From contig CAZUWK010000002.1 of NCBI GenBank assembly GCA_964624185.1, positions 1 through 36,088 of the forward strand: a stretch of 36,088 nucleotides of DNA. The letters are read 5' to 3'. This stretch comes from an uncultured Gammaproteobacteria bacterium. Lineage in GTDB: Bacteria > Patescibacteriota > Microgenomatia > 0-14-0-10-38-17. Below, piece by piece: positions 6,230 to 30,466 of the stretch. The notes beneath the pieces were generated by a model. It saw only the letters and a list, made by a program, of their open reading frames with translations. It ran no database searches and was not told where the DNA came from. Numbering within the stretch: the first letter of the stretch is position 1; each line of letters opens with the position of its first letter. The translations under genes were made by a program, and so were the position numbers.

Positions 6230-6257
6230 TTGACAAGGGAAATAAAAGGTTTATAAT
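6230..6257 (+). promoter_or_regulatory. sigma70-type promoter TTGACA-N16-TATAAT
   Basis: TTGACA lies at 6230-6235 and TATAAT at 6252-6257, 30 nt upstream of the ATG at 6288. Confidence 0.6.
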
Positions 6258-6287: not shown

Positions 6288-6791
6288 ATGCCTAAGAAAA
6301 AGAAAGTTCGCCAAGTTGCCTTTGATCCGGAAGTAACCTATTTTAAGCCGCGAGGGGTGGCTCTTTCCTCTTTAAAAGAGATAAGTCTAAATCTAGATGA
6401 GTTAGAAGCCCTGCGGTTGGTGGATTTGGAGGACCAAGAGCAAACCGCGGCGGCTAAAAAAATGGCCATTTCTCAATCAACCTTACAAAGAACTTTGGTT
6501 AAGGCTCGTAAAAAAGTTGCCCAAGCCCTAGTGGAGGGCCAGGCAATAAAAATTAAAGGGGGTGAGGTAATTATGGTCGGATTTGGTCGAGGTCGAGGTC
6601 AGGGTGGTGGGCGAGGCCCGTCAACAGGTTCAGGGCGAGGACGGATGGGAGGATCGTTTTCTGCCGGTCCGGGAGGAGTTTGCGTTTGCACTAATCCCGA
6701 TTGCCAACATGAAATGACCCATCAGGCCGGGGTTCCCTGTTATCAGGCGAAATGTCCTAAATGCGGCAGCCCGATGGTTAGAAAACGATAA
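6288..6791 (+). CDS. DUF134/UPF0251 DNA-binding protein fused to an RGG-rich linker and a Cys-rich zinc-ribbon tail
   Basis: The N-terminus, PEVTYFKPRGV...LNLDELEALRLVDLEDQEQTAAAKKMAISQSTLQRTLVKARKKVAQALVEGQAIKIKGG, is the DUF134 pattern. The tail reads GFGRGRGQGGGRGPSTGSGRGRMGG followed by CVCTNPDCQHEMTHQAGVPCYQAKCPKCG. Confidence 0.7.
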   Translation: MPKKKKVRQVAFDPEVTYFKPRGVALSSLKEISLNLDELEALRLVDLEDQEQTAAAKKMAISQSTLQRTLVKARKKVAQALVEGQAIKIKGGEVIMVGFGRGRGQGGGRGPSTGSGRGRMGGSFSAGPGGVCVCTNPDCQHEMTHQAGVPCYQAKCPKCGSPMVRKR

Positions 6792-6797
6792 ATTTTT

Positions 6798-7193
6798 ATG
6801 AAAATTGCTATTTGCGCATCAGGACAAGATTTAGAAAGCCAGGTTAATCCTCGTTTTGGTCGTTGCCCTTATTTTTTGTTGGTTGATTCTGAAACCAAGG
6901 AATTTGAGATTCTAGAAAACACGGCCGGAATGGCTCCTCGTGGAGCGGGAGTTTCGGCGGCCCAAATGGTGGCTAACAAGAAGGCGGCGGCGGTTTTAGG
7001 GGTTAATTTTGGCCCCAACGCCGTTAATGTTTTAGGAGGAGCGGGAATTAAGCTTTATGCTCTTCCACCGGAAAAGTCTTTTGTTAGTATTGCCGAAGCC
7101 TTAGAAATGTATCGAGGGGGAAAGCTAGAAGAAGTCAAAAAAGCAACAGGCCCAGGATGGGGTTTCCAAAAAGGAGGTAGGCGTGGTCGATAA
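6798..7193 (+). CDS. NifX/NifB-C-terminal-like protein (dinitrogenase FeMo-cofactor-binding fold family)
   Basis: 131 aa. KIAICASGQDLESQVNPRFGRCPYFLLVDSETKEFEILEN...AVLGVNFGPNAVNVLGGAGIKLY matches the family pattern HFGRAPYF...G.nA...L...GI. Confidence 0.75.
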   Translation: MKIAICASGQDLESQVNPRFGRCPYFLLVDSETKEFEILENTAGMAPRGAGVSAAQMVANKKAAAVLGVNFGPNAVNVLGGAGIKLYALPPEKSFVSIAEALEMYRGGKLEEVKKATGPGWGFQKGGRRGR

Positions 7194-8439
7194 TAACAAA
7201 AAAACCGGTTTGGCTAAGGGAGAAAGGTTGGCCGGTTTGGCGATTTGGCTGGAAGGGGCTTTGGCCCTCTCAAAGGCTGTTATTGGCCTTGCTTCCGGTA
7301 GCCTGGTACTGATAACTGATGCTATTCATAGTGCCTCTGATTTACTCTCTATTATTACCTCTTGGCTGGGTTTAAGAATTGCCCAAAAGAAAGCTACCAA
7401 ACGCTTTTCTTACGGCTATTACAAAGCGGAAAGCGTTGGCGCCTTAATAATTTCGGCTTTAATTATTTATGGTTTTTGGGAAATGTTTTCTCAGGGGCTA
7501 TCCAGTCTTACCCGCCCATCCCAGGTTTCTATTCCCCTTTTGGCGATGGGGGTTTCCTTAGTTGATGCTTTATTTTTGTTTTTCTTTGGTAATTATGAAG
7601 TTCGGGTGGGCGAGGAAATTAACGCTCAAAGCTTAATTGCTATGGGTAAGGAAAATAGAACCCACATTTTTTCTTCGAGCGCGGTTCTAATTGGTACTTT
7701 GGCGGCTTATTATCAAATTCCCTATCTTGAAGGGATAATCACCATGGGTATTTCTTTATTGATTTTGGAAATTGGTTTGTCTTCAGGTAAAGAAGCGGTT
7801 TTGTCATTAATGGATGTTAGTCCGGGCAAAGAAGTGGAGGAAAAAGTTGCCAAGGCCATTGAGTCGGCGCCAGGGGTGGAGGAATTTTGGGATTTGAAAT
7901 TAAGAAAATCGGGCCCTTATGTATTTGGCCAAGTTAAGGTAGGGGTAAGAAAGTTTATTGACGTTTCCCGGGCCCATAAGGTTGCCGATAAGATTGAAAA
8001 AGAGGTCAAAAAGGTAGTTGCCAATGTTGACTCTTTGGCGGTTCATATTGAGCCGTTTAGGAGTGATTTTTGTCATTTAGTGATTCCGGTTAAAGATAAA
8101 AAAGATTTGGAATCGACTCTTGATAACCGCTTCGGTCGAGCGCCGTATTTTTTGTTTGTTAATTTAGAAAAAGATGAAATTAGGGGCTTTTATTTTATTG
8201 ACAATAAGTTTAAAAATAAAAAAGTTCGGGCCGGTTTAGCAGCGGCAAAACTAATTGTCGATCAAAAAAGTCAGGTCTTAATCGCCAATCAGGTCGGCGA
8301 GATTTCTTTTCATGCTCTTCACGACAACTTAATTGATATTTATCAGACAAAAAAAGCCAAAACCGCCAAAGAAGCGATTAGCTTATTTTTGAAGGGAGAA
8401 ATTGATCAGTTGGTCGAACCAACAAAGGAAAAAAATTAA
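7183..8439 (+). CDS. cation diffusion facilitator (CDF) transporter fused to a C-terminal NifX-like domain
   Basis: The six-TM N-terminal part carries the TM2 motif DAIHSASDLLS. A CDF cytoplasmic domain follows (VEEFWDLKLRKSGPYVFGQVKVGV...VHIEP). The last ~115 aa read HLVIPVKDKKDLESTLDNRFGRAPYFLFVNLEKDE...VLIANQVGEISFHALHDNLIDIY, repeating the NifX-like pattern of the preceding gene. The start overlaps the upstream stop by 11 nt. Confidence 0.7.
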   Translation: MVDNNKKTGLAKGERLAGLAIWLEGALALSKAVIGLASGSLVLITDAIHSASDLLSIITSWLGLRIAQKKATKRFSYGYYKAESVGALIISALIIYGFWEMFSQGLSSLTRPSQVSIPLLAMGVSLVDALFLFFFGNYEVRVGEEINAQSLIAMGKENRTHIFSSSAVLIGTLAAYYQIPYLEGIITMGISLLILEIGLSSGKEAVLSLMDVSPGKEVEEKVAKAIESAPGVEEFWDLKLRKSGPYVFGQVKVGVRKFIDVSRAHKVADKIEKEVKKVVANVDSLAVHIEPFRSDFCHLVIPVKDKKDLESTLDNRFGRAPYFLFVNLEKDEIRGFYFIDNKFKNKKVRAGLAAAKLIVDQKSQVLIANQVGEISFHALHDNLIDIYQTKKAKTAKEAISLFLKGEIDQLVEPTKEKN

Positions 8440-9297
8440 ATGGCTGGTGTAAAAACGGTGGCTATCACTGGCGGTAAGGGTGGCGTTGGCAAATCAACGG
8501 TGGCGATTCTTTTGGCCAACAAGCTTCGAAAAGAGGGTAAAAGAGTGGTTTTGGCTGATTGTGATGTTGAATGCCCCAACGGCTATCTTCTTTTAGGCCA
8601 AGAATTAGATAAGCCAGCCAAGAAAGTAACGGCCCAATTCCCTAAATTAATAAAGGAAAAGTGTCAAACCCGCCTGCCGGACGGGCAGGAGTGCGGCCTC
8701 TGTGTTGACAAGTGCCGCTCTAAGGCTATTTTCCAAGCCCCTGGCCAATACCCAATTTTTTTGGAAGCGCTTTGTTCCGGTTGCGGCCTATGCTGGCATC
8801 TTTGCCCCCATCAGGCCATTTCGATTAAGAAAAAAGTTATTGGCGAAATTTTTCAAAACAAAATAACAGATAATTTTTATTTAGTAACCGGTCAATCGGT
8901 AGGAGTAGTCGAAGAATCGGGACCAATAGTTAGCCAAACTAAAAAGTTGGCCCAAGAATTAGCTGAAAAAATTGAAGCTGATTATTTATTGGTTGATACG
9001 GCCGTAGGCTTGCATTGCGGCGTAATTCGGGCCCTAATGGGAGCGGATTTAGCCTTTGCGGTGGCTGAACCCACCCCCTTGGGGGCCCATGATTTGAAGT
9101 TAATTTTAGAGTTGTTATCTATTCTTAAGGTAAGGGCTAAAATTATTCTTAATCAGGCCGATTTAGGAGTAAAAGAGCCAATTGCCAAAATTGCCCAAGA
9201 GAAAAAAACGCCGATAGAATATCAATTACCTTATTCTAAAGAACTGGCTAAAGCTTATTCACAAGGAAAATTAGCAAAAATTAATATTTTTTCATGA
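8440..9297 (+). CDS. MinD/ParA-superfamily P-loop ATPase with inserted 4Fe-4S ferredoxin domain
   Basis: It has the deviant Walker A GGKGGVGKST and the Cys motifs CGLCVDKC and CSGCGLCWHLCP. It starts immediately after the upstream stop. Confidence 0.75.
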   Translation: MAGVKTVAITGGKGGVGKSTVAILLANKLRKEGKRVVLADCDVECPNGYLLLGQELDKPAKKVTAQFPKLIKEKCQTRLPDGQECGLCVDKCRSKAIFQAPGQYPIFLEALCSGCGLCWHLCPHQAISIKKKVIGEIFQNKITDNFYLVTGQSVGVVEESGPIVSQTKKLAQELAEKIEADYLLVDTAVGLHCGVIRALMGADLAFAVAEPTPLGAHDLKLILELLSILKVRAKIILNQADLGVKEPIAKIAQEKKTPIEYQLPYSKELAKAYSQGKLAKINIFS

Positions 9298-10181
9298 CTA
9301 AAATTGCCGTTGTTTCCGGTAAGGGCGGGGTAGGCAAATCAATGCTCTCCTCTTCTCTTTGTCTTTATTTATCCCAAAATCAAAAAATTGTTGCTGTTGA
9401 TGGCGACGTTGATGCTCCTAACCTTCATTTGTGGTTAGGATTAGGTGAATCCTGGGATGAAGAGAAAGAAATTTCTGTTTTTGAAAAACCGGTTTTTGAT
9501 TTGGGTAAATGCACCGGCTGTGGAAGGTGTGCCCAAATTTGTGCCTTTGGGGCTTTGGAAATGAAAAAAGGCCAGCCAAATTTAAACAGATTTATCTGTG
9601 AGGGTTGTGGAGCTTGCGAAGAAATTTGTCCAGTGGGGGCGATTAAAATGAAACCGGTAGGAGGGGCCAAAATTAGGATTAAAAAAGATGCTGGCGGTTT
9701 TCCCTTATTTTCGGCCCAGCTTTATCCGGGCCAAACTGGTTCGGGTAAAGTAGTTGACCAGATACTCAATAGGGCCGAGCATTTTTTTTACCAAACGATG
9801 GTAATTGATGCTCCGGCCGGAACCGGCTGTCCAGTAATTGCCGTTTTAAAAGAAGCGGATTTTGTCATTTTAGTTACCGAACCTACCCCCTCAGGCTTTA
9901 CCGATTTAAAACGAGCCCTGGGGGTGGTTGACCATTTTGGGCTTCCTTTCGGGGTTGTTGTTAATAAGTGGGATCTTAATCCATCTTATGTTAAGAAAAT
10001 AGTTCATTTTGCCGGGCAAAACTTTTTAGGGAAAATTAGCTATAATCAAAAAATATTTTCGGCTCTGGCTAATTTAGAACCGATTATGACTACCGATTTG
10101 CCGACCAAGCAAGAAATGAAAAAAATTTTTTTAAGACTCCTTGATCGCCTAGCAAGACCACTAATTACCCGGTTGTGTTAA
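9294..10181 (+). CDS. MinD/ParA-superfamily P-loop ATPase with inserted 2x[4Fe-4S] ferredoxin domain (paralogue)
   Basis: It has SGKGGVGKS plus CTGCGRCAQIC and CEGCGACEEICP. Its start forms an ATGA overlap with the upstream gene. Confidence 0.75.
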   Translation: MTKIAVVSGKGGVGKSMLSSSLCLYLSQNQKIVAVDGDVDAPNLHLWLGLGESWDEEKEISVFEKPVFDLGKCTGCGRCAQICAFGALEMKKGQPNLNRFICEGCGACEEICPVGAIKMKPVGGAKIRIKKDAGGFPLFSAQLYPGQTGSGKVVDQILNRAEHFFYQTMVIDAPAGTGCPVIAVLKEADFVILVTEPTPSGFTDLKRALGVVDHFGLPFGVVVNKWDLNPSYVKKIVHFAGQNFLGKISYNQKIFSALANLEPIMTTDLPTKQEMKKIFLRLLDRLARPLITRLC

Positions 10182-10218: not shown

Positions 10219-11427
10219 ATGGAAATAACAAAGAAAAACTTTTTAGTAACCATTGCCGCTGTTTTTCTGTTAATTTTTGGTTTATTTATTCCCGCCAAAA
10301 TTGAGGCTCAAGAAAAGATCTCTCTTCATTTATTTTGGTCTTATGGTTGTCCTCATTGCGAGGAGGAAAAGATTTTTCTTAATAACCTGAAAGATCAATA
10401 TCCCGAATTAACGATTAAGGCCTATGAAGTAACTTCTAATCGGCCCAATTCAATTTTGCTGGAAAAAACCGGAGAAGCGTTAGGGATAAATATTTCCGGA
10501 GTGCCATTTACCATTATTGGCCAGGACTTTCTTATTGGTTATGAGAGTGATGAAACTACCGGCCGAAGGATTGAAGAGATGATAAGGTCGGCCACAGAGA
10601 ATGATCATGATGACTTAGTTGGTAACTTATTGTCTGCCGAGCAGTCAAATCAAAACGAGCAAGCTCAAGTAAAAGGGGCCGACACTATAAGAGTACCGGT
10701 TTTTGGCGATCTAGAGATTGCCAAACTTTCTCTTCCCCTGTTGACCTTTGTGGTGGCTCTTTTGGACGGCTTTAACCCTTGCGCCATGTGGACTTTAATT
10801 TTTCTAATTAGCTTATTGTTGGGCATGAAAGACAAAAAGCGAAGGTGGATTTTAGGAACTGCTTTTATTGTTACTAGCGGGGCAATTTATTTCTTGTTTC
10901 TTTCGGCTTGGCTAAATCTCTTTTTATTTTTAGGTTGGGTAACCTGGATTCGAATTTTGATTGGTTTGATAGCCTTGGTGGCCGGCGGATATTATTTGAG
11001 AGATTTTTGGGTTAATCGGGAGGGAGTTTGCCCGGTAACCGGCAACCAAAAGAGGCAAAAAATTTTCCAGAAAATAAAAGCTATTACCCAAAAAAGGCAA
11101 TTTCTCTTGGCCCTGCTGGGAATAATATTACTAGCGGTTGCTGTTAATGCGGTTGAGCTGGTTTGTTCAGCTGGTTTGCCGGCTATTTATACTCAAGTTT
11201 TGGCCTTGGCTAATTTGCCTACCTGGCAATATTATCTTTATCTTATTTTTTATGTGATTATTTTTATGATCGATGATTTATTTGTTTTTTTTGCCGCCAT
11301 GATTACTCTTAGGGTAACCGGGATTCAAACTAAGTATGCCCGTTATTCTCATTTAATTGGCGGTTTGTTAATGCTGGTTATTGGTTTACTGCTTTTGTTT
11401 AAACCGGGATTATTAATGTTTGGTTAA
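10219..11427 (+). CDS. thioredoxin-fold (CPHC) domain fused to a polytopic membrane domain with conserved cysteines; putative transmembrane thiol-disulfide oxidoreductase
   Basis: 402 aa with an N-terminal signal or TM segment. WSYGCPHCEEEK is a thioredoxin/DsbA-type CxxC motif. Six or more TM segments follow, carrying LDGFNPCAMW and ELVCSAGLP. Confidence 0.45.
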   Translation: MEITKKNFLVTIAAVFLLIFGLFIPAKIEAQEKISLHLFWSYGCPHCEEEKIFLNNLKDQYPELTIKAYEVTSNRPNSILLEKTGEALGINISGVPFTIIGQDFLIGYESDETTGRRIEEMIRSATENDHDDLVGNLLSAEQSNQNEQAQVKGADTIRVPVFGDLEIAKLSLPLLTFVVALLDGFNPCAMWTLIFLISLLLGMKDKKRRWILGTAFIVTSGAIYFLFLSAWLNLFLFLGWVTWIRILIGLIALVAGGYYLRDFWVNREGVCPVTGNQKRQKIFQKIKAITQKRQFLLALLGIILLAVAVNAVELVCSAGLPAIYTQVLALANLPTWQYYLYLIFYVIIFMIDDLFVFFAAMITLRVTGIQTKYARYSHLIGGLLMLVIGLLLLFKPGLLMFG

Positions 11428-11840
11428 AATTACAAGGTTGTTATGAAGAATGTCAGCAGGGCGGTAAGGAAAGAATTAGAACTTGGTCTTTAATTTTGGC
11501 GGCCACTGCGGCCACTGCAGTTTGTCGGCCAGCATTCGTATTTAATTTGTTTGTCTCATACTTTGATTTTTGCGAATTATTAAAGAATTAATTACTGGTG
11601 GTTCACCACCCTTTATAGTTCAAATTAAAAAATTGAGAATAGCGATGTTTTATTTGATCGACCGAAGAAACATTTTTTAAAAAAGAGGTAGCAAGAGAGC
11701 AAAAAACAATCAGTTTTTTGAGGGTAATGGCCATTTTCTTTCTTAAAATATTCATCTCATAAATGCTTGTCGATGTCGATAATCTTGCTTTCGGGGCAAT
11801 TTTTCTAGTAAAATAAGGAAGGTAGGAGGAGGTGATAATA

Positions 11841-12525: not shown

Positions 12526-14460
12526 TTAGAAAATTACTTGGCTTAGGAGTTCGTCTATTTGGGCGGTGGCCATGCCAATCACCTTATCGCCACCGCCGTA
12601 GTAGATAAAAAGAGTATTTTTCACCAAGATCGCTCCGCAGGGAAAAACCACGTTAGGAACATCACCAATTTGTTCATATTTTTCGGTGGGCTTGATAATT
12701 GGGTATTTGCTTCGATAAAGAACTTTGCCGGGGTCGTTTTGGTCCAAAATCATCATCCCAACCCGATATTGATGGTCGATATCGGAAACACCGTGGTACA
12801 GGAGCAGCCAGCCGGAGTTAATTTTAATTGGTGGGCCGGCAATACCGATTTTTTCTCCATCCCAGCCATTAGGCCGAGGATAAATTGCCTGCTCTTTTTT
12901 AAGCCAATTTTCTTCTTTTTTTAGTTCTTCTAGGCTATTAACGTAGTCAATGGCGATATCTCTCCCCCCGGTTCGGTGCAGGATAACATATTGGCCATTG
13001 ATTTTCTCCGGTAGGAGACAACTGTTTTTATTGTGAACGCCAAATTTAGAGATGGCAACCGGATCAGACCACTCCCAGCGATGATTAACAAAATCATTAA
13101 CGGTGATTGATGACATCGCTACGCGAGGAGGATCAATGCCGTTATAGGCGGTATAAAACATGTAAAACTGGTCCCCCATTTTGGTAATTCGGGGGTCTTC
13201 ACAACCAGAAAGCCGCCCTGGTTCTTTTTTTTGTTCAAAGTCCCCTCGGGGGGTATAAATTGGCTCATTAAAACGCTTAAAGTGGAAACCGTCATCGCTT
13301 TCGGCTAAGCCCAAAGTGGAGGTATGATCCGGCGATTGAGCCCGATAAACCAAATAAAATTTGTCCTGTTCGTAAACTGCGGCCGGGTTAAAAACGGAAT
13401 TAGCCTCCCATAAATTTTCTTCGCGGGGAGTAAGAATAGGATTATGATGATATTTAGTGGCCAAAAAAACTTCCTTGGTAGGGTTATGGAACATATTTTT
13501 AAATAAGTCGTTGATGTCAATTTCGGCCAGGGCGCAATGATTATCGGCGGCACCATAGTAAAGGCGTAAGCGTTTACCCTCAAGCGTGGCTCCGGAAGGA
13601 AAAACCACATTGTCGACGGCGCCTTTTTTTTCGTATTTTGTTTTTGGGGCCATTATTGGTCCATCGGTTCGGGCAATAATTTTTTTTGGGTCATTTTTAT
13701 CTAATAAGGCGGCTTCGATGCTAAAAAGCCGCTTTTCGGGAGTGTAGTAGTTTTGAATATGGGCATAAATTAGCAACCAGCCATGTTTAGTTTTAATTGG
13801 TACCGTGCCAACTTCGATTTGATCGGAGTTTAAGCGGCGCAAGTTAATGGAGTGTCGATAATGATCCAGGCATTTATACCATTTGTTCCAAAAACCCGGC
13901 GACCAAATATCGGACAGCTGATTAAAATAGGCCAAACCAATTCGAGCCGGTGGCTGGTCGGTATCGGCGGTTAAGACGGCCGCATATTGACCGTTAATCT
14001 TTTCCGGGAAAAGAGCCATCGCCTTAGCGTTAAAATGGGTGACCAGGTGTTTGGCTTGAATGGTTTTTAAATCTTTGCTAATGGCCAGGCCAACCCTGAT
14101 CCCCTCTGGTTTTGGCGGATAGCAAGACAGGGCGGTGTAAAAAATATAATATTTGTTTTTTATTTTGGTAACTCTGGGGTCTTCACAACCGTATTTTTCC
14201 CATTCTTTTTCCGGTTCAACTAAAACCCCTCTTTTGGTAAAGTCGACGCCATTTTTGCTAACAGCATGAGCAATGGTAGAAACGGTCATTTTTTGGCCCA
14301 GATGCTCTTTTTTGGCCGACATCGCCCGATATAGGAGATGATATTGGCCGTCTTTGACAACGGTGGGATTGAAAGCCCCCTCGGTTTCCCAAAGATTTTT
14401 TGGATCAGGAGAAAGGATTGGGTTCTTAGGATGGCGGACCACTTTCAAATTATTGATCAT
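12526..14460 (-). CDS. tandem double GH130-family module protein (beta-mannoside phosphorylase/glycosidase-like)
   Basis: Two copies of the GH130 pattern are present. Copy 1 reads NPTVVKDGQYHLLYRA...CEDPRVTKIKNKYYIFYTA...YYGAADNHCALAEI. Copy 2 reads NPAAVYEQDKFYLVYRA...CEDPRITKMGDQFYMFYTA...YYGGGDKVIGMATA. I prefer ATG 14460 (MINNLKVVRHPKNPIL), which lies 4 nt after the upstream stop, over the track start at 14490. Confidence 0.75.
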   Translation of the reverse strand: MINNLKVVRHPKNPILSPDPKNLWETEGAFNPTVVKDGQYHLLYRAMSAKKEHLGQKMTVSTIAHAVSKNGVDFTKRGVLVEPEKEWEKYGCEDPRVTKIKNKYYIFYTALSCYPPKPEGIRVGLAISKDLKTIQAKHLVTHFNAKAMALFPEKINGQYAAVLTADTDQPPARIGLAYFNQLSDIWSPGFWNKWYKCLDHYRHSINLRRLNSDQIEVGTVPIKTKHGWLLIYAHIQNYYTPEKRLFSIEAALLDKNDPKKIIARTDGPIMAPKTKYEKKGAVDNVVFPSGATLEGKRLRLYYGAADNHCALAEIDINDLFKNMFHNPTKEVFLATKYHHNPILTPREENLWEANSVFNPAAVYEQDKFYLVYRAQSPDHTSTLGLAESDDGFHFKRFNEPIYTPRGDFEQKKEPGRLSGCEDPRITKMGDQFYMFYTAYNGIDPPRVAMSSITVNDFVNHRWEWSDPVAISKFGVHNKNSCLLPEKINGQYVILHRTGGRDIAIDYVNSLEELKKEENWLKKEQAIYPRPNGWDGEKIGIAGPPIKINSGWLLLYHGVSDIDHQYRVGMMILDQNDPGKVLYRSKYPIIKPTEKYEQIGDVPNVVFPCGAILVKNTLFIYYGGGDKVIGMATAQIDELLSQVIF

Positions 14461-14464
14461 TTTT

Positions 14465-16069
14465 TTAGTTTTTTGGTTTAATAACAGCATTTTCTAGTTT
14501 AGCATTACCGGTAGTTTTTAGCTGATCCAAAAAGCGGTCTAAGTTAGCCGTGGCAACGCAAACATAAGAGTCGGCGCCGCCGTAATAAACAAATAAATTA
14601 TTACCAATGATAACCGCGCCACAAGGGTAAACTACTCCGGCCTTAAAGCCGTCGTTGTCATACCACTGATCAGGTTCAATAATTGGCTGTCGGGAGCGAT
14701 AAAGAAGCCTGGTTGGGTTATTTAAATCTAAAAGCATCGCTCCCACTTTATAGCGATGACCTTCTTTGTCATCAACGGCCTGGTAAATTAACAACCAACC
14801 ATCTTTAGTTTTTAGGGGTGGAGCGCCAGCGCCGATTTTCCGGCTGTCCCACCACATTGGCGAACGGGGGCGAATGTGATATTGGCCTTTTAAATATTTA
14901 CCATTAGTAAAGTCGAGAGAATCAACAAAGTCAATTAGAATATCAGGGAAAATTCGGTGGAAAATAACATATTGGCCGTTAATTTTTTCCGGTAAAATAC
15001 AAGCGCTTTTATCAACCACCCCGGGCGGTGAAACTAGAATCGGCTTTTTCCAAAGCCAGTTGCGGTTTAAAAAATCTTTTAGGGCAATTGAAGTGAGGGC
15101 AATTCGGGGTTCGGTGACACCATCAAAAGCAACGTAAGTCATATAAATTCGCTCCTCAACTCGGGTTAGGCGAGGATCTTCACAGCCGCCACAACCACCG
15201 GAAGAATAGGCAGTGCTTAATTGACCAGGCTTTTTAGTGCTTTCAAAAGGCTGGGTAGGGACAAAAACCGGTCGGTCAAACCGCTCATCAATTTTGATGC
15301 CGTCACTGCTGGTGGCGTAGCCAATGGAGGAAACATAGTCAAAACCTTGGGCTCGATAGAAAATATGAACCTTACCGGCCTCATAAATTGCCGCCGGATT
15401 AAAGGTATTAAAGGCTTCCCAAGCATTTTTTGATTCAGGCCTAATAAGTGGGTTTTGGGCGGGTTTGGTTAACTGATAGCTCTTCCTAATTTCGATTTGG
15501 CCGCTGATACGATAATCGGGATAAACTATAGCCCAAATTGCCCCGTCGATTAACCAATAAGCTAAATATTGCCCCCTGATTTTTAATAAATCAATAAAGA
15601 TTGGCGAGTTGTTTTTTGAGGATGGGTTTATTTGCCAAACCGGTTCACTACTGCGCCAAAGAAGCTTGGGGTCTTTTTCCTGAGAAAAGGCTATTACCCC
15701 AATTTCGACTTGATTGTTTTGAGGGTTTTGATAGTGGAAAAAGACCAAAACTCCCTCATTGGTGGTAAAAGCATTTTCGATTTTTAAAGATTCTGGGTCA
15801 ACATATTCACTACCCGGGGCGAGCAGATGATGGTAGCGCTGGTTTAGGAAAGCGATTTTCTTTTCTTTGATTTTGGGATAGGTTTTGACAAATAGGCTTT
15901 TGGGCCGGGCCTTTTTAAAGTTAAAACCATCACTGCTTTTTAAAATTTGCCCGGTTCGGAGCGGTTTTTTATTTTGGATGATTGAATAAGCGGCGCCTTT
16001 ATAATGGCAAAAAAAGAAGGTTTTGCTTTGGGAGCATTGAGCTTTTGTAAAGCCTAGAACTTTAAACAT
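14465..16069 (-). CDS. GH130-family protein with an N-terminal degenerate GH130-like module
   Basis: The C-terminal ~330 aa read NPAAIYEAGKVHIFYRAQG...GCEDPRLTRVEERIYMTYVAFDG...YYGGADSYVCVATA. The N-terminal ~200 aa show weaker propeller-like patterns (LKSSDGFNFKK and IGVIAFSQEKDPKLLWRS). Confidence 0.7.
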   Translation of the reverse strand: MFKVLGFTKAQCSQSKTFFFCHYKGAAYSIIQNKKPLRTGQILKSSDGFNFKKARPKSLFVKTYPKIKEKKIAFLNQRYHHLLAPGSEYVDPESLKIENAFTTNEGVLVFFHYQNPQNNQVEIGVIAFSQEKDPKLLWRSSEPVWQINPSSKNNSPIFIDLLKIRGQYLAYWLIDGAIWAIVYPDYRISGQIEIRKSYQLTKPAQNPLIRPESKNAWEAFNTFNPAAIYEAGKVHIFYRAQGFDYVSSIGYATSSDGIKIDERFDRPVFVPTQPFESTKKPGQLSTAYSSGGCGGCEDPRLTRVEERIYMTYVAFDGVTEPRIALTSIALKDFLNRNWLWKKPILVSPPGVVDKSACILPEKINGQYVIFHRIFPDILIDFVDSLDFTNGKYLKGQYHIRPRSPMWWDSRKIGAGAPPLKTKDGWLLIYQAVDDKEGHRYKVGAMLLDLNNPTRLLYRSRQPIIEPDQWYDNDGFKAGVVYPCGAVIIGNNLFVYYGGADSYVCVATANLDRFLDQLKTTGNAKLENAVIKPKN

Positions 16070-23064: not shown

Positions 23065-23787
23065 TTATTCTAGTGTTAGCCCCTTAATATCATCAATAAC
23101 AATATCGCCAAGAACAAACGATTGGTAAGATAGGCTTTTATTATTTTTAGAAAAATAATGGGAGATAGTTTTGGTGTTTATCCATTTTGTTTTTCGCAAG
23201 CCGTTATATTCCGGAAAAGAGCAAGGACAAACCTCTTGCCACCCTACAATCTGTTTATTATTTTTTTCGTGCCTATGCAAGGCCTGGCCTTGCATAGGCA
23301 CAGATTTAATACCTTGAGCGTGAATATATTGAGAAAGAAGAAGTAGTTGTTCGTCAGTTTTGACTCTAGCAGCGCAATAAACGCCCTGATAAAGAGGGCC
23401 AACCCTTTCATATTTATAATTAAAATATATCGAATAGCGAGTTGAAAATGAATTCATAAAATTATCAATGGAGTTAGCCCCCCTCTGTTTTACCAGAAAA
23501 TGAAAATGGTTGGGTTTAAGACAATATGCCAGCAGAGTTATTTCTTTAAAAAAATTATTTAATCTTAATTGTTTATAAATTTTATCTCTTTCTTTTTGGT
23601 CAATTTTTTCTTCTAGTCTTAGCAGAAGAGAAGTTTCGTCCTTTTCAGTCAAGTATTCTTTTAGGTAGGTAAGAAAAACAGCGTAGTCTTGTTTATCAAG
23701 AAAAATTTTTCTTTTTTCTACTCCTCGATTATAGATATGGTAATAGCTTTGGGGCAAATATTGTTTTCTAGCGTTTTTGGCAGGCAT
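23065..23787 (-). CDS. REP-associated tyrosine transposase (RAYT) / IS200-like HUH Y1 transposase family
   Basis: YHIYNRGVEKRKIF.D..DY..FL matches the N-terminal pattern. CLKPNHFHFLV carries the HUH motif (HFH). The remaining motifs are YFNYKYERVGPLYQGVY and QYIHAQ, a YIH.N-type catalytic-Tyr helix. Confidence 0.7.
   Translation of the reverse strand: MPAKNARKQYLPQSYYHIYNRGVEKRKIFLDKQDYAVFLTYLKEYLTEKDETSLLLRLEEKIDQKERDKIYKQLRLNNFFKEITLLAYCLKPNHFHFLVKQRGANSIDNFMNSFSTRYSIYFNYKYERVGPLYQGVYCAARVKTDEQLLLLSQYIHAQGIKSVPMQGQALHRHEKNNKQIVGWQEVCPCSFPEYNGLRKTKWINTKTISHYFSKNNKSLSYQSFVLGDIVIDDIKGLTLE
23269..23301. repeat. REP-like palindrome copy inside the RAYT coding sequence
   Basis: GTGCCTATGCAAGGCC-T-GGCCTTGCATAGGCAC is translated on the minus strand as VPMQGQALHRH, in frame. 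Confidence 0.9.
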
Positions 23788-29044: not shown

Positions 29045-30466
29045 TTACGGCGTTTCCGGTAGGGGCTCATCTTTTGTTTCCGGAATAGGATTAGGCTCAG
29101 TTTGGTTGTTATTATCTAAATCGGAAACAAGGTCGGCAACGGCATTAATGATATTTGAATCAGGCAAATAAGAGTAGAGTTCTCTTTGCCAATCATTTCG
29201 GGAGATAAAAACGTGGGGGTCAACTCCTAAGCCTTCAATGGGTTGACCGTCTTCTCTTAGGGTGAGACTGTGAACTAAAAACATAGAGTATATTTGGTGG
29301 GAGCTAATTTGATTGTCGAGTTTAAAAACTCTTTCTACTGTTCCCCAGCCTCGAGTGGTGTTGCCGACCAAAACACCAACATTATATTTTTTCAAAACCG
29401 AAGCCATCACTTCAGCTGAGCTTTGAGAGTTTTCATTAATTAAAATGATCACTTTCTTATATTGAACCAGGCTAGGCAGCCAGCCGGTTCGGGTTTTGTA
29501 ATCGGTTTTTTCGTCTTGGTGAAAAAATTGATAGGCATATTGGTCTTGGCCAATAAAAGGGCCTAAAAAATAGGGCAGATTATCAATTGCTCCGCCGATA
29601 TTATCCCGAAGATCAAAAATTAATGTTTCTACCCCGGGTTGCCCCTGGACTTTTTGACTAACCCTTTGCAGTTCGTCAAAAGTGGTTGGCGAAAACTTTT
29701 TTAGATGAATATGGAAGATACTGTCATTAATTAGTTGGTAGCTCATAGTTGGTTCTACTCCGGAGACATCATAAAGTTGACGGGCCTCATCATCTTTTAA
29801 AACTTCGTAGGCTTGATTAATCTGGGCTAATTTTTCTTGGGCTTGGGGAGTATCTTTCCCGGACAGTTCTTGTTTTAAGTTTTGGTAGGTTTTTTCTATT
29901 TTTTCTTGATCGGCCTTTTGGTCAATTCCCAAGGCCTGGTAATGGTCTTGATCGGTAATGTTGCGGACCATATTATTTAATTCTTGTTCCTCTTTTTGGC
30001 TGTAAAGATGGCTGCGGCCAAATGGTTCTAGGTTATTTAAAACCAAATTATTAAGCTGAACAATAAATTCTTCTTTGGTTTCTTCACTGTCAATTTGTTT
30101 TAAGGTGTCTCTTAGGGTGATTAGTAGGGTTTGGCGGTTTTTCTCTTTCGGGTTTTGGGGCTGGCCGGTTAATTTTTCGATAGCCAAAAGAAACAGAGAG
30201 GTTAAGTCTTCGTCACTAATTTTTTTCCAGTAATTAGCCTTAATTTTGTCATAAATCTCGCCGGTGAAGGCTAAATAGGAGTTGCTTTCTTCGCCTAAAA
30301 TAGCGGCTGGTTGAGGTTGGTTTTTTTGTTGAAAATAATAACCCCCCAGACCACCAACAACTAAAGCGGCGATAGTAATAACCAGAAAAATCGCCGGATT
30401 AATAGGCCATTTTCTTTTAAGGCTAAAAAATTTTAGTTTTTGATTTTTTCCTTCGGGAGTGAGCAT
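29045..30466 (-). CDS. membrane-anchored S41 (C-terminal processing peptidase)-family protein with an internal J-like domain
   Basis: The protein has an N-terminal TM segment. The J-like segment reads DHYQALGIDQKADQEKIEKTYQNLKQELSGKDTPQAQEKLAQINQAYEVLKDDEARQLYD. The S41 core reads LIFDLRDNIGGAID and ILINENSQSSAEVMASVL. Confidence 0.6.
   Translation of the reverse strand: MLTPEGKNQKLKFFSLKRKWPINPAIFLVITIAALVVGGLGGYYFQQKNQPQPAAILGEESNSYLAFTGEIYDKIKANYWKKISDEDLTSLFLLAIEKLTGQPQNPKEKNRQTLLITLRDTLKQIDSEETKEEFIVQLNNLVLNNLEPFGRSHLYSQKEEQELNNMVRNITDQDHYQALGIDQKADQEKIEKTYQNLKQELSGKDTPQAQEKLAQINQAYEVLKDDEARQLYDVSGVEPTMSYQLINDSIFHIHLKKFSPTTFDELQRVSQKVQGQPGVETLIFDLRDNIGGAIDNLPYFLGPFIGQDQYAYQFFHQDEKTDYKTRTGWLPSLVQYKKVIILINENSQSSAEVMASVLKKYNVGVLVGNTTRGWGTVERVFKLDNQISSHQIYSMFLVHSLTLREDGQPIEGLGVDPHVFISRNDWQRELYSYLPDSNIINAVADLVSDLDNNNQTEPNPIPETKDEPLPETP

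Follow-up and report, generated by a model that had tools for sequence, protein, structure and literature searches.

The stretch of DNA examined here, which we call the window, comprises 36,088 nucleotides (nt) of contig CAZUWK010000002.1 (GenBank assembly GCA_964624185.1), from a bacterium that GTDB places among the Microgenomatia of the Patescibacteriota. It carries a gene whose product joins a cation diffusion facilitator (CDF) transporter to a C-terminal domain of family IPR003731, named Nitro_FeMo-Co in Pfam (PF02579). The open reading frame (ORF) of this fusion begins with GTG and is the third of a tight cluster of genes that overlap or abut on the same strand (Table 1). The strong Shine–Dalgarno sequence that precedes the GTG overlaps the last codons of the upstream gene, an arrangement suggesting that translation of the fusion gene is coupled to that of its neighbor.

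All three domains of the fusion protein exceed the Pfam gathering cut-offs. Cation_efflux (PF01545) covers residues 19–210 (1.4e-38; 133.1 bits against a cut-off of 26.6), ZT_dimer covers residues 215–292 (2.3e-15; 56.8 bits against 26.7), and Nitro_FeMo-Co covers residues 310–403 (2e-13; 50.9 bits against 26.3), the last match spanning positions 2–93 of a 94-position profile. The general CDF model of NCBIfam, TIGR01297, yields 207.5 bits (cut-off, 82.35). In an AlphaFold2 (AF2) model with secondary structure assigned by DSSP, six long helices precede residue 210 (4–38, 41–67, 82–107, 118–146, 149–176, and 180–209). They are followed at residues 216–291 by the alpha-beta-beta-alpha-beta order of a ferredoxin-like cytoplasmic C-terminal domain (CTD). 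Residues 1–290 match YiiP and ZnT structures in Foldseek (YiiP 8F6E: E 9e-14, TMt 0.71). A preliminary description of this DNA had proposed a complete CDF core of six transmembrane (TM) segments and a cytoplasmic domain ending in VHIEP. This sequence corresponds to residues 287–291, and the Pfam boundaries and AF2 helices agree with the proposal.

The six-TM domain and ferredoxin-like CTD are common to the fusion and to YiiP/FieF (FieF 2QFI and 3H90; YiiP 3J1Z and 8F6E). The proteins also share the TM2 and TM5 positions of transport site A and an FxYGYxKxE loop motif after TM2. Unlike YiiP and FieF, the fusion continues past the CTD with an extra IPR003731 domain of 125 residues, here called the C-domain. 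The AF2 model has a mean predicted local distance difference test (pLDDT) score of 83, and the C-domain scores about 90 (residues 300–410). Only four residues (F-R-S-D) link the last strand of the CTD (282–291) to the first strand of the C-domain (296–303), so the C-domain hangs off the CTD strand that bears H288 and E290. These results show a single polypeptide in which a CDF transmembrane domain of six helices and the usual CTD are followed by a well-folded IPR003731 domain belonging to the MTH1175/ORP/IssA type.

The architecture is conserved. When one genome per GTDB species was scanned, a relative was found in 252 genomes, and locus counts given below out of 80 refer to the best 80 of these. 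The 80 relatives match over essentially all 418 residues, and in every one of these loci, which come from different studies, the CDF and the C-domain occupy a single ORF. The covalent union of a CDF with a Nitro_FeMo-Co fold had been proposed in the preliminary description, and the combination with Cation_efflux was looked for in homologs. It is present, together with ZT_dimer, in all 120 of the best homologs in a protein collection clustered at 90% (53–92% identity). An exhaustive HMMER search with residues 1–295 returned 168 representatives of 50% identity clusters at E<=1e-30. The C-domain is recognized in at least 106 of the best 150 of these, 103 by phmmer and three more by a Pfam scan that covered ten informative ones. 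Many representatives without a recognized C-domain are fragments that end at contig ends.

The DNA across the junction (8020–8110) is plain and in frame, with no homopolymer run. Residues P291, F292, S294, and P302 at the junction are conserved, P291 and P302 being near-invariant, and AF2 models a continuous sheet-to-sheet passage between the two domains. The preliminary description had allowed for a joining of two genes by a frameshift or assembly artifact. This was not borne out: frameshift, chimera, and gene-calling artifact were all rejected on the grounds that all 80 loci and all 120 clusters are fused and that the junction is conserved. The architecture was also thought to be unusual, which is true among studied CDFs and not in nature, given the number of clusters and species that carry it. 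Public annotation of the homologs reads merely “cation diffusion facilitator family transporter.” Literature searches found no paper describing a CDF–IPR003731 architecture, and no solved or characterized CDF with such a domain is among the PDB sequence and Foldseek matches.

The best PDB sequence matches of the C-domain are MTH1175 (3.3e-11), TM1290, and ORP (2WFB, 9.3e-7). Foldseek aligns it with ORP of Desulfovibrio gigas (2WFB) over 119 columns, with TMt 0.90 and a root-mean-square deviation of 1.5 Å. No NifX, NafY, or NifB model of NCBIfam matched at E<=0.01. The label of a “NifX-like,” FeMo-cofactor-binding fold given in the preliminary description therefore holds only at the level of the superfamily (PF02579), and NifX proper is not the nearest relative. 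The C-domain shares the PF02579/IPR003731 superfamily with NifX, NafY, and the C-terminal domain of NifB, and a published IPR003731 cladogram sets IssA and MTH1175 apart from the Nif families (PMC5524996).

The signature reported to be repeated from the upstream gene is indeed present, as FGRAPYFLFV in the C-domain (residues 317–326) and FGRCPYFLLV in the upstream stand-alone protein. With 28% identity and an E value of 7e-16, the two are true but distant paralogs. A neighbor-joining tree gathers the 81 fused domains into a single clade and leaves all 67 stand-alone neighbors outside it. Mean identity is 43% among fused domains, 40% among stand-alone proteins, and 25% between the two sets, and the highest identity within any one locus is 33%. 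The separate clade and the low cross identity indicate one old fusion rather than a recent copy. Origin of the C-domain by recent tandem duplication of the upstream gene was rejected for the same reasons, since same-locus identity does not exceed 33% and the fused domains are monophyletic.

Fused and stand-alone domains also differ at specific positions. In fused domains, the Cys of FGRC is replaced by Ala, GAG by RAG, and GPNA by G[E/P]IS, and H377, R380, and D381 have been gained. The family-wide residues R319, N341, G351, and G372 are kept. Cysteine is absent from 58% of fused domains and present in 94% of stand-alone neighbors. The fused domains are basic, with a median isoelectric point of 9.4 and a net charge of +5. 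The C-domain of the window protein ends in LVEPTKEKN, without the long cationic Gly/aromatic tail of the IssA type.

Record titles of bacterial carriers include Shapirobacteria, Portnoybacteria, and Paceibacterota, whereas archaeal titles include Aenigmatarchaeota, Woesearchaeota, Micrarchaeota, Bathyarchaeota, Thermoplasmata, and Methanosarcinales. A few metagenome-assembled genomes (MAGs) of Actinomycetota are also among the carriers. The closest named relative of the window protein, at 88%, comes from a Shapirobacteria MAG. These results show that the fusion is old, had a single origin, and is conserved in bacteria of the candidate phyla radiation (CPR), in DPANN, and in other archaea. Leaf order in a neighbor-joining protein tree suggests an archaeal group, which includes the Actinomycetota sequences, and two CPR groups.

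Some carriers bear labels that disagree with this grouping. Three Actinomycetota-labeled MAGs (L052, L058, and L071) have the fused gene and no ORP-like neighbors, and their proteins group with archaeal sequences, which suggests lateral transfer or mis-binning. Third-party annotation (TPA) MAGs titled “uncultured Gammaproteobacteria,” “Pseudomonadales,” or “Saccharibacteria” (loci L003–L016, L019–L021, L023, and L031–L079) group with sequences labeled Microgenomates or Paceibacteria and have the same operon. Such titles inside the CPR groups look like unreliable placeholders. Two close CDF relatives carry other C-terminal additions, PriA_3primeBD in P0124 and PRK plus CYTH in P0176. Both may be chimeras produced by gene calling or assembly, not genuine architectures.

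The register of the transport site was taken from MAFFT and phmmer alignments to E. coli FieF and Shewanella YiiP, which agree with each other. The phmmer alignment to the FieF/YiiP type spans fusion residues 22–292 (E 7e-22). In TM2, the H-x3-D pair of the preliminary description (HSASD, residues 49–53) stands: position 49 is His in 74 of 81 fused homologs, and position 53 is Asp in 80 of 81. For TM5, the earlier reading was correct in calling the site non-canonical, and its H-x3-S register was one helical turn off. Both alignments instead give E157-x3-H161, with S165 a conserved residue one helical turn beyond H161. Among the 81 fused homologs, position 157 is Glu in 77 and Asp in four, and position 161 is His in 56 and Asp in 25. 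The His/Asp alternation identifies position 161 as that of the canonical Asp, and it rules out the H-x3-S register together with the alignments. In the Microgenomates subfamily, E157 and H161 sit in a motif, G-x-E-N-[RK]-T-H-x-F-S-S, that is invariant in 121 close homologs.

All four positions of site A thus hold ligating residues, and the quartet of the fusion protein is HD-EH, as opposed to DD-HD in YiiP and HD-HD in ZnTs. HD-EH is invariant in the 121 close Microgenomates-type homologs and rare overall, found in three clusters of fused representatives. The commonest quartets among these representatives are HD-ED (40), HD-HD (10), HD-DD (8), DD-ED (7), and ND-ED (6). HD-EH is a Microgenomates variant of the family’s usual HD-ED. 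No HD-EH quartet is listed for the CDF clades analyzed in an earlier survey (PMC5703985). This derived site is a natural experiment on how CDFs select metals and couple transport to protons.

In the CTD, residues H265, H288, and E290 are conserved and align with FieF H261, H283, and D285. The positions that match FieF H232 and H248 hold W/F and K in the fusion protein. In the YiiP structure, these FieF residues make up the CTD metal site.

Table 1. Features of the fusion gene and its operon in the window
Feature	Position	Strand	Remarks
Sigma-70-type promoter-like site, TTGACA-16-TATAAT	6230..6257	+	12/12; consensus match only; 30 nt upstream of first gene
DUF134 protein (putative helix-turn-helix regulator)	6288..6791	+	Gly/Arg-rich then Cys-rich tail; Pfam DUF134 4.2e-27, residues 3–95
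Stand-alone IPR003731 protein (Nitro_FeMo-Co), IssA/ORP/MTH1175-like	6798..7193	+	Pfam 8.5e-19
Shine–Dalgarno sequence AGGAGG	7172..7177	+	5 nt before fusion GTG start, within last codons of upstream gene
Fusion gene, CDF transporter (transmembrane domain and CTD) with C-terminal IPR003731 domain	7183..8439	+	418 amino acids
Transmembrane domain (Cation_efflux, residues 19–210, six helices)	7237..7812	+	Pfam, TIGR01297, Foldseek
TM2 half of site A: H49 (7327–7329), D53 (7339–7341)	7327..7341	+	aligned to FieF D45/D49
TM5 half of site A: E157 (7651–7653), H161 (7663–7665)	7651..7665	+	aligned to FieF H153/D157, YiiP H155/D159
Cytoplasmic CTD (ZT_dimer, residues 215–292)	7825..8058	+	Pfam 2.3e-15, alignment, conservation
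IPR003731 (Nitro_FeMo-Co) domain, residues 296–418	8068..8436	+	Pfam 2e-13, PDB sequence matches, Foldseek
MinD/ParA-type P-loop ATPase with 4Fe-4S ferredoxin insert, copy 1	8440..9297	+	Pfam CbiA 2.2e-17 and Fer4 families
MinD/ParA-type P-loop ATPase with 2x[4Fe-4S] ferredoxin insert, copy 2	9294..10181	+	CbiA 1.1e-17, Fer4_7 3.6e-13
Thioredoxin-like (CPHC) polytopic membrane protein	10219..11427	+	402 amino acids
Terminator-like hairpin and T-rich tail, after last gene	11597..11610	+	consensus match only

The neighbors of the fusion gene recur with it. A MinD-like gene is present in 64/80 loci (with two copies in 50) and a stand-alone IPR003731 domain in 60/80, and 63/80 have a DUF134 gene on the same strand, no more than 6 kb away. 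Two unfused close relatives of the CDF lie among unrelated housekeeping genes, outside any such cluster. The fusion is nearly always co-transcribed with the DUF134 regulator, the Cys-bearing stand-alone IPR003731 protein, and the two MinD-ferredoxin ATPases. Promoter-like sites in the region are no more numerous than in shuffled sequences, and the site at 6230–6257 is the sole 12/12 match.

The product of the first gene also has a weak Sigma70_r4_2 match in Pfam. In its C-terminal third (6573–6791, + strand), a Gly/Arg-rich stretch is followed by a CVC...C...C...CPKC tail, for which Pfam and NCBIfam gave only weak zinc-ribbon matches. This Cys-rich tail might equip the putative regulator to sense metal or clusters. 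The Cys of FGRC in the stand-alone protein is kept in 52 of 67 stand-alone homologs. That protein ends in a 14-residue cationic Gly/Trp tail, GPGWGFQKGGRRGR (7152–7193, + strand), a miniature of the 70-residue cationic Gly/aromatic tail that IssA uses for thioferrate binding (PMC5524996). The two ATPase genes overlap by 4 nt, and a PDB search found no solved structure that combines a MinD ATPase with a ferredoxin.

The thioredoxin-like membrane protein is probably encoded by the last gene of the operon. A TM segment at its N terminus accompanies the CPHC motif and a polytopic membrane domain (FNPC..., CSAGLP), and the protein matches no Pfam or NCBIfam family above cut-off. A homolog adjoins the cluster in 23/80 loci, and the protein may transfer reducing equivalents across the membrane in the service of the same process. 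A thioredoxin plus DUF6132 membrane-protein gene takes its position in locus L081.

That locus also encodes a larger form of the fusion. P0151 (524 residues; L081, 6001–7575) consists of Cation_efflux, ZT_dimer, Nitro_FeMo-Co, and FeS_assembly_P, and it alone has the last domain among the sequences examined. Its neighbors encode a MinD-Fer4 protein, an MrpORP-like protein (ParA plus Nitro_FeMo-Co), NifU_N, and a metallo-beta-lactamase-fold protein. The added domain and these neighbors appear to link the fusion to Fe–S handling.

By its gene content, the cast of the window operon seems to mirror the ORP complex of Desulfovibrio. Both window ATPases carry CbiA/ParA together with Fer4, which at the level of domains is the pairing of a MinD-like ATPase with a 4Fe-4S ferredoxin expected from Orp3 and Orp4, which are MinD/ParA-type ATPases. 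Like the fusion, MrpORP (Orp9, DVU2109) handles metal and carries an IPR003731 (“Di-Nase”) domain at its C terminus. It is specific to anaerobes and is encoded with the MinD-like 4Fe-4S proteins Orp3 and Orp4 and the single-domain IPR003731 protein Orp8/ORP (PMC6345978), and a matching cast stands beside the fusion. Orp3 and Orp4 have two 4Fe-4S ferredoxin motifs each, Orp8 consists of one IPR003731 domain holding a noncovalent Mo–Cu sulfide cluster, and MrpORP has a P-loop domain and an IPR003731 domain, both of which bind Fe–S (PMC6345978).

The two systems differ in the partner of the C-domain, which is a membrane transporter in the fusion and a soluble Mrp/NBP35 ATPase in MrpORP, and in the mostly Cys-free nature of the fused domains. 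NCBIfam MrpORP models match the C-domain and the neighboring proteins weakly, and a Pfam scan revealed no gene joining Mrp/NBP35 to IPR003731 in the window operon. In L081, by contrast, an MrpORP-like gene shares a cluster with the fused CDF. Control also appears to differ, with a sigma-70-like promoter and a DUF134 gene in the window operon and sigma-54 in ORP operons.

A second point of comparison is IssA of P. furiosus (PF2025), which shows that an IPR003731 domain can bind both Fe and S and serve as a thioferrate store; MTH1175 falls in the IssA clade (PMC5524996). IssA and ORP bind inorganic, anionic metal sulfides despite lacking a complete set of Cys ligands (PMC5524996, PMC6345978), and IssA homologs increase in methanogens grown on pyrite (PMC8516115). 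The C-domain shares with IssA, MTH1175, and ORP the fold, the basic character, and the motifs RFGRAxYF, N341, xAG, and G372. Unlike them, it is fused to a transporter and belongs to a clade separate from the stand-alone proteins of the same operon.

The best explanation for these observations as a whole, which we regard as about an even bet, is that the fusion is a divalent-metal/H+ exporter whose C-domain senses metal sulfides or passes them on and docks an ORP-like complex. The protein would be a CDF homodimer that exports a divalent transition metal in exchange for protons through H49, D53, E157, and H161. The homology to YiiP and the positive-inside rule place both termini and the C-domain in the cytoplasm, and the loop at residues 65–81 is rich in Lys and Arg. 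The exported metal would most likely be Fe2+, with Mn2+ and Zn2+ also possible. Iron is favored by the scores of the NCBIfam CDF subfamily models and by the carboxylate-rich A sites of the family (HD-ED, HD-DD, DD-ED, and ND-ED). The best subfamily scores are those of MamM (131 against an equivalog cut-off of 350), MamB (126 against 350), MntE (109 against 500), and FieF (105 against 420), far above ZitB (31 against 408) and DmeF (24 against 250).

The basic and mostly Cys-free C-domain would bind anionic metal-sulfide species noncovalently, as ORP and IssA do. In that position it would gate export or hand metal to the pump, and it would also hold the MinD-ferredoxin ATPases and the soluble IssA/ORP-like protein at the membrane. 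The load of iron or metal sulfide in sulfidic, anoxic habitats would then be managed by the operon, with metal stored or moved on IPR003731 scaffolds and expelled by the CDF.

Several points weigh against this explanation. Its substrate, its direction of transport, and the ligand of its C-domain are all inferred, and an exporter beside storage or assembly proteins has no obvious logic if the cell needs iron. Each of the six named subfamily models scores far under its equivalog cut-off. The A site differs widely among fused proteins, with the Zn-type HD-HD included. Moreover, HD-ED has been reported in one bacterial clade that was assigned to Zn, and the correlation between quartet and metal is only partial (Barber-Zucker et al., PMC5703985). 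The geometry between the domains is uncertain in the AF2 model (pTM 0.57). Finally, ~14 of the 80 loci have DUF134 and the fusion alone, without the ATPases, which indicates that the pump can work without ATPases nearby.

The C-domain could instead be a ligand-free module for docking or oligomerization that anchors an ORP-like complex of the stand-alone IPR003731 protein and the MinD-ferredoxin ATPases at the membrane, with the CDF an ordinary exporter or a mere anchor. Such anchoring might serve positioning or cell division, a role already suggested for the ORP complex. The ORP proteins assemble into a complex of several proteins, described as “putatively involved in cell division,” and MrpORP sits at the cell poles (PMC6345978). 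The loss of the conserved FGRC Cys, the altered GAG and GPNA motifs, and the tight, conserved link to the CTD with its near-invariant prolines would all suit such a module. However, the retained R319, N341, G351, and G372, along with the domain’s own H377, R380, and D381, suggest a functional pocket. The transporter A-site residues are strictly conserved, which indicates that transport matters, and the ~14 loci mentioned above lack the stand-alone protein nearby as well as the ATPases. On balance, we consider a pure docking role unlikely.

A bolder possibility, which we likewise think improbable, is that an ancient metal-sulfide pathway, specific to anaerobes, has its point of entry at the membrane in the fusion. 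Here the CDF would pass iron, inward or outward, straight between the membrane and the IPR003731 scaffold at its cytoplasmic tip, and the MinD-ferredoxin ATPases would act on the bound cluster. If this is true, the fusion would be the first transporter physically coupled to the assembly, storage, or disassembly of an inorganic cluster, and the orphan ORP/MTH1175/IssX family and the ATPases would gain a defined job in CPR and DPANN cells.

Two other scenarios differ in the metal or in its direction, and to each we give only a slender chance. The first is the handling of Mo/W–Cu thiometallates, in which IPR003731 domains would bind clusters of the [S2MoS2-M-S2MoS2] type from sulfidic water and the CDF would export the captured soft metal (Cu, Zn, Cd, or Co). 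To our knowledge, CDFs do not move Cu(I), which counts against this scenario. The C-domain matches ORP in sequence and in fold, a basic domain free of Cys suits an anionic cluster, and ORP holds its Mo–Cu sulfide cluster noncovalently (PMC6345978). A study cited in PMC6345978 also bears a title on S2MoS2-M-S2MoS2 in ORP, where M is Fe, Co, Ni, Cu, or Cd. Nevertheless, MTH1175, of the IssA clade, is closer to the C-domain in sequence than ORP is. The extra domain and neighbors seen in other lineages (FeS_assembly_P and NifU_N) point to Fe–S assembly, and a Pfam scan of the operon showed no genes for the transport of molybdate or tungstate or for their cofactors.

The second scenario is one of supply rather than disposal. 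The CDF would take up Fe2+ or channel it onto the fused IPR003731 scaffold. There the stand-alone protein and the MinD-ferredoxin ATPases would build or traffic Fe–S clusters, in what would amount to an assembly line coupled to the membrane. The covalent, nearly linkerless attachment beside the CTD metal site, the retention of the cluster of genes in reduced CPR and DPANN genomes, and P0151 with its FeS_assembly_P domain and its NifU_N and MrpORP-like neighbors all speak for it. In addition, the iron donor of Fe–S assembly has been called undiscovered (PMC6345978). On the other side, the fused domain has no Cys ligands, and two papers on the family describe CDFs as extruding cations from the cytoplasm (PMC7441159, PMC8341793).

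A link to nitrogenase, in which a NifX-type domain for FeMo cofactor would connect the transporter to cofactor biosynthesis, or a variant in which nickel is supplied for F430, is very unlikely and already largely refuted. The Pfam name Nitro_FeMo-Co speaks for it. So does a study of ANME-2a in which the same neighborhood (a CDF, 4Fe-4S proteins, a “dinitrogenase FeMo-co biosynthesis protein,” and a P-loop NTPase) was guessed to deliver nickel; that study mentions no fusion (PMC12622379). Against it stand the lack of any Nif model match, the closest relatives being MTH1175, TM1290, and ORP instead, and the absence of nif and mcr genes among the window ORFs scanned and among the operon partners searched for in the 80 loci. 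Moreover, we know of no diazotrophs or methanogens among the Microgenomates or DPANN. Least credible of all is an artifact that joined two genes. Nothing was found in its favor, the odd additions that could be such artifacts being those of other representatives (P0124 and P0176), and the common frame and junction of all 80 loci reduce it to a negligible prospect.

CDF transporters have been well studied, and we found none described with an attached cluster-binding domain. IPR003731 proteins outside nitrogenase, such as ORP, MTH1175, and IssA, and their MinD-ferredoxin partners are poorly understood, and the domain is widespread in Archaea and Bacteria (PMC5524996). The conserved covalent link yields a testable hypothesis, namely that IPR003731 domains handle species that trade metal with a pump in the membrane. 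It also draws attention to an operon for metal handling that is conserved in CPR and DPANN organisms, whose genomes are very small.

Other features of the window lie outside the operon. Scans for tRNAs and Rfam families gave no matches. A 240-residue ORF (23065–23787, – strand) contains an IS200-like Y1 transposase domain. An ORF at 29045–30466 (– strand) combines a DnaJ (J) domain (residues 174–233) with an S41 peptidase (252–419), an uncommon pairing. Two adjacent, overlapping GH130 genes (12526–14490 and 14465–16069, – strand) resemble those for beta-1,2-mannobiose phosphorylase, and the first carries two GH130/GH32N-like modules.

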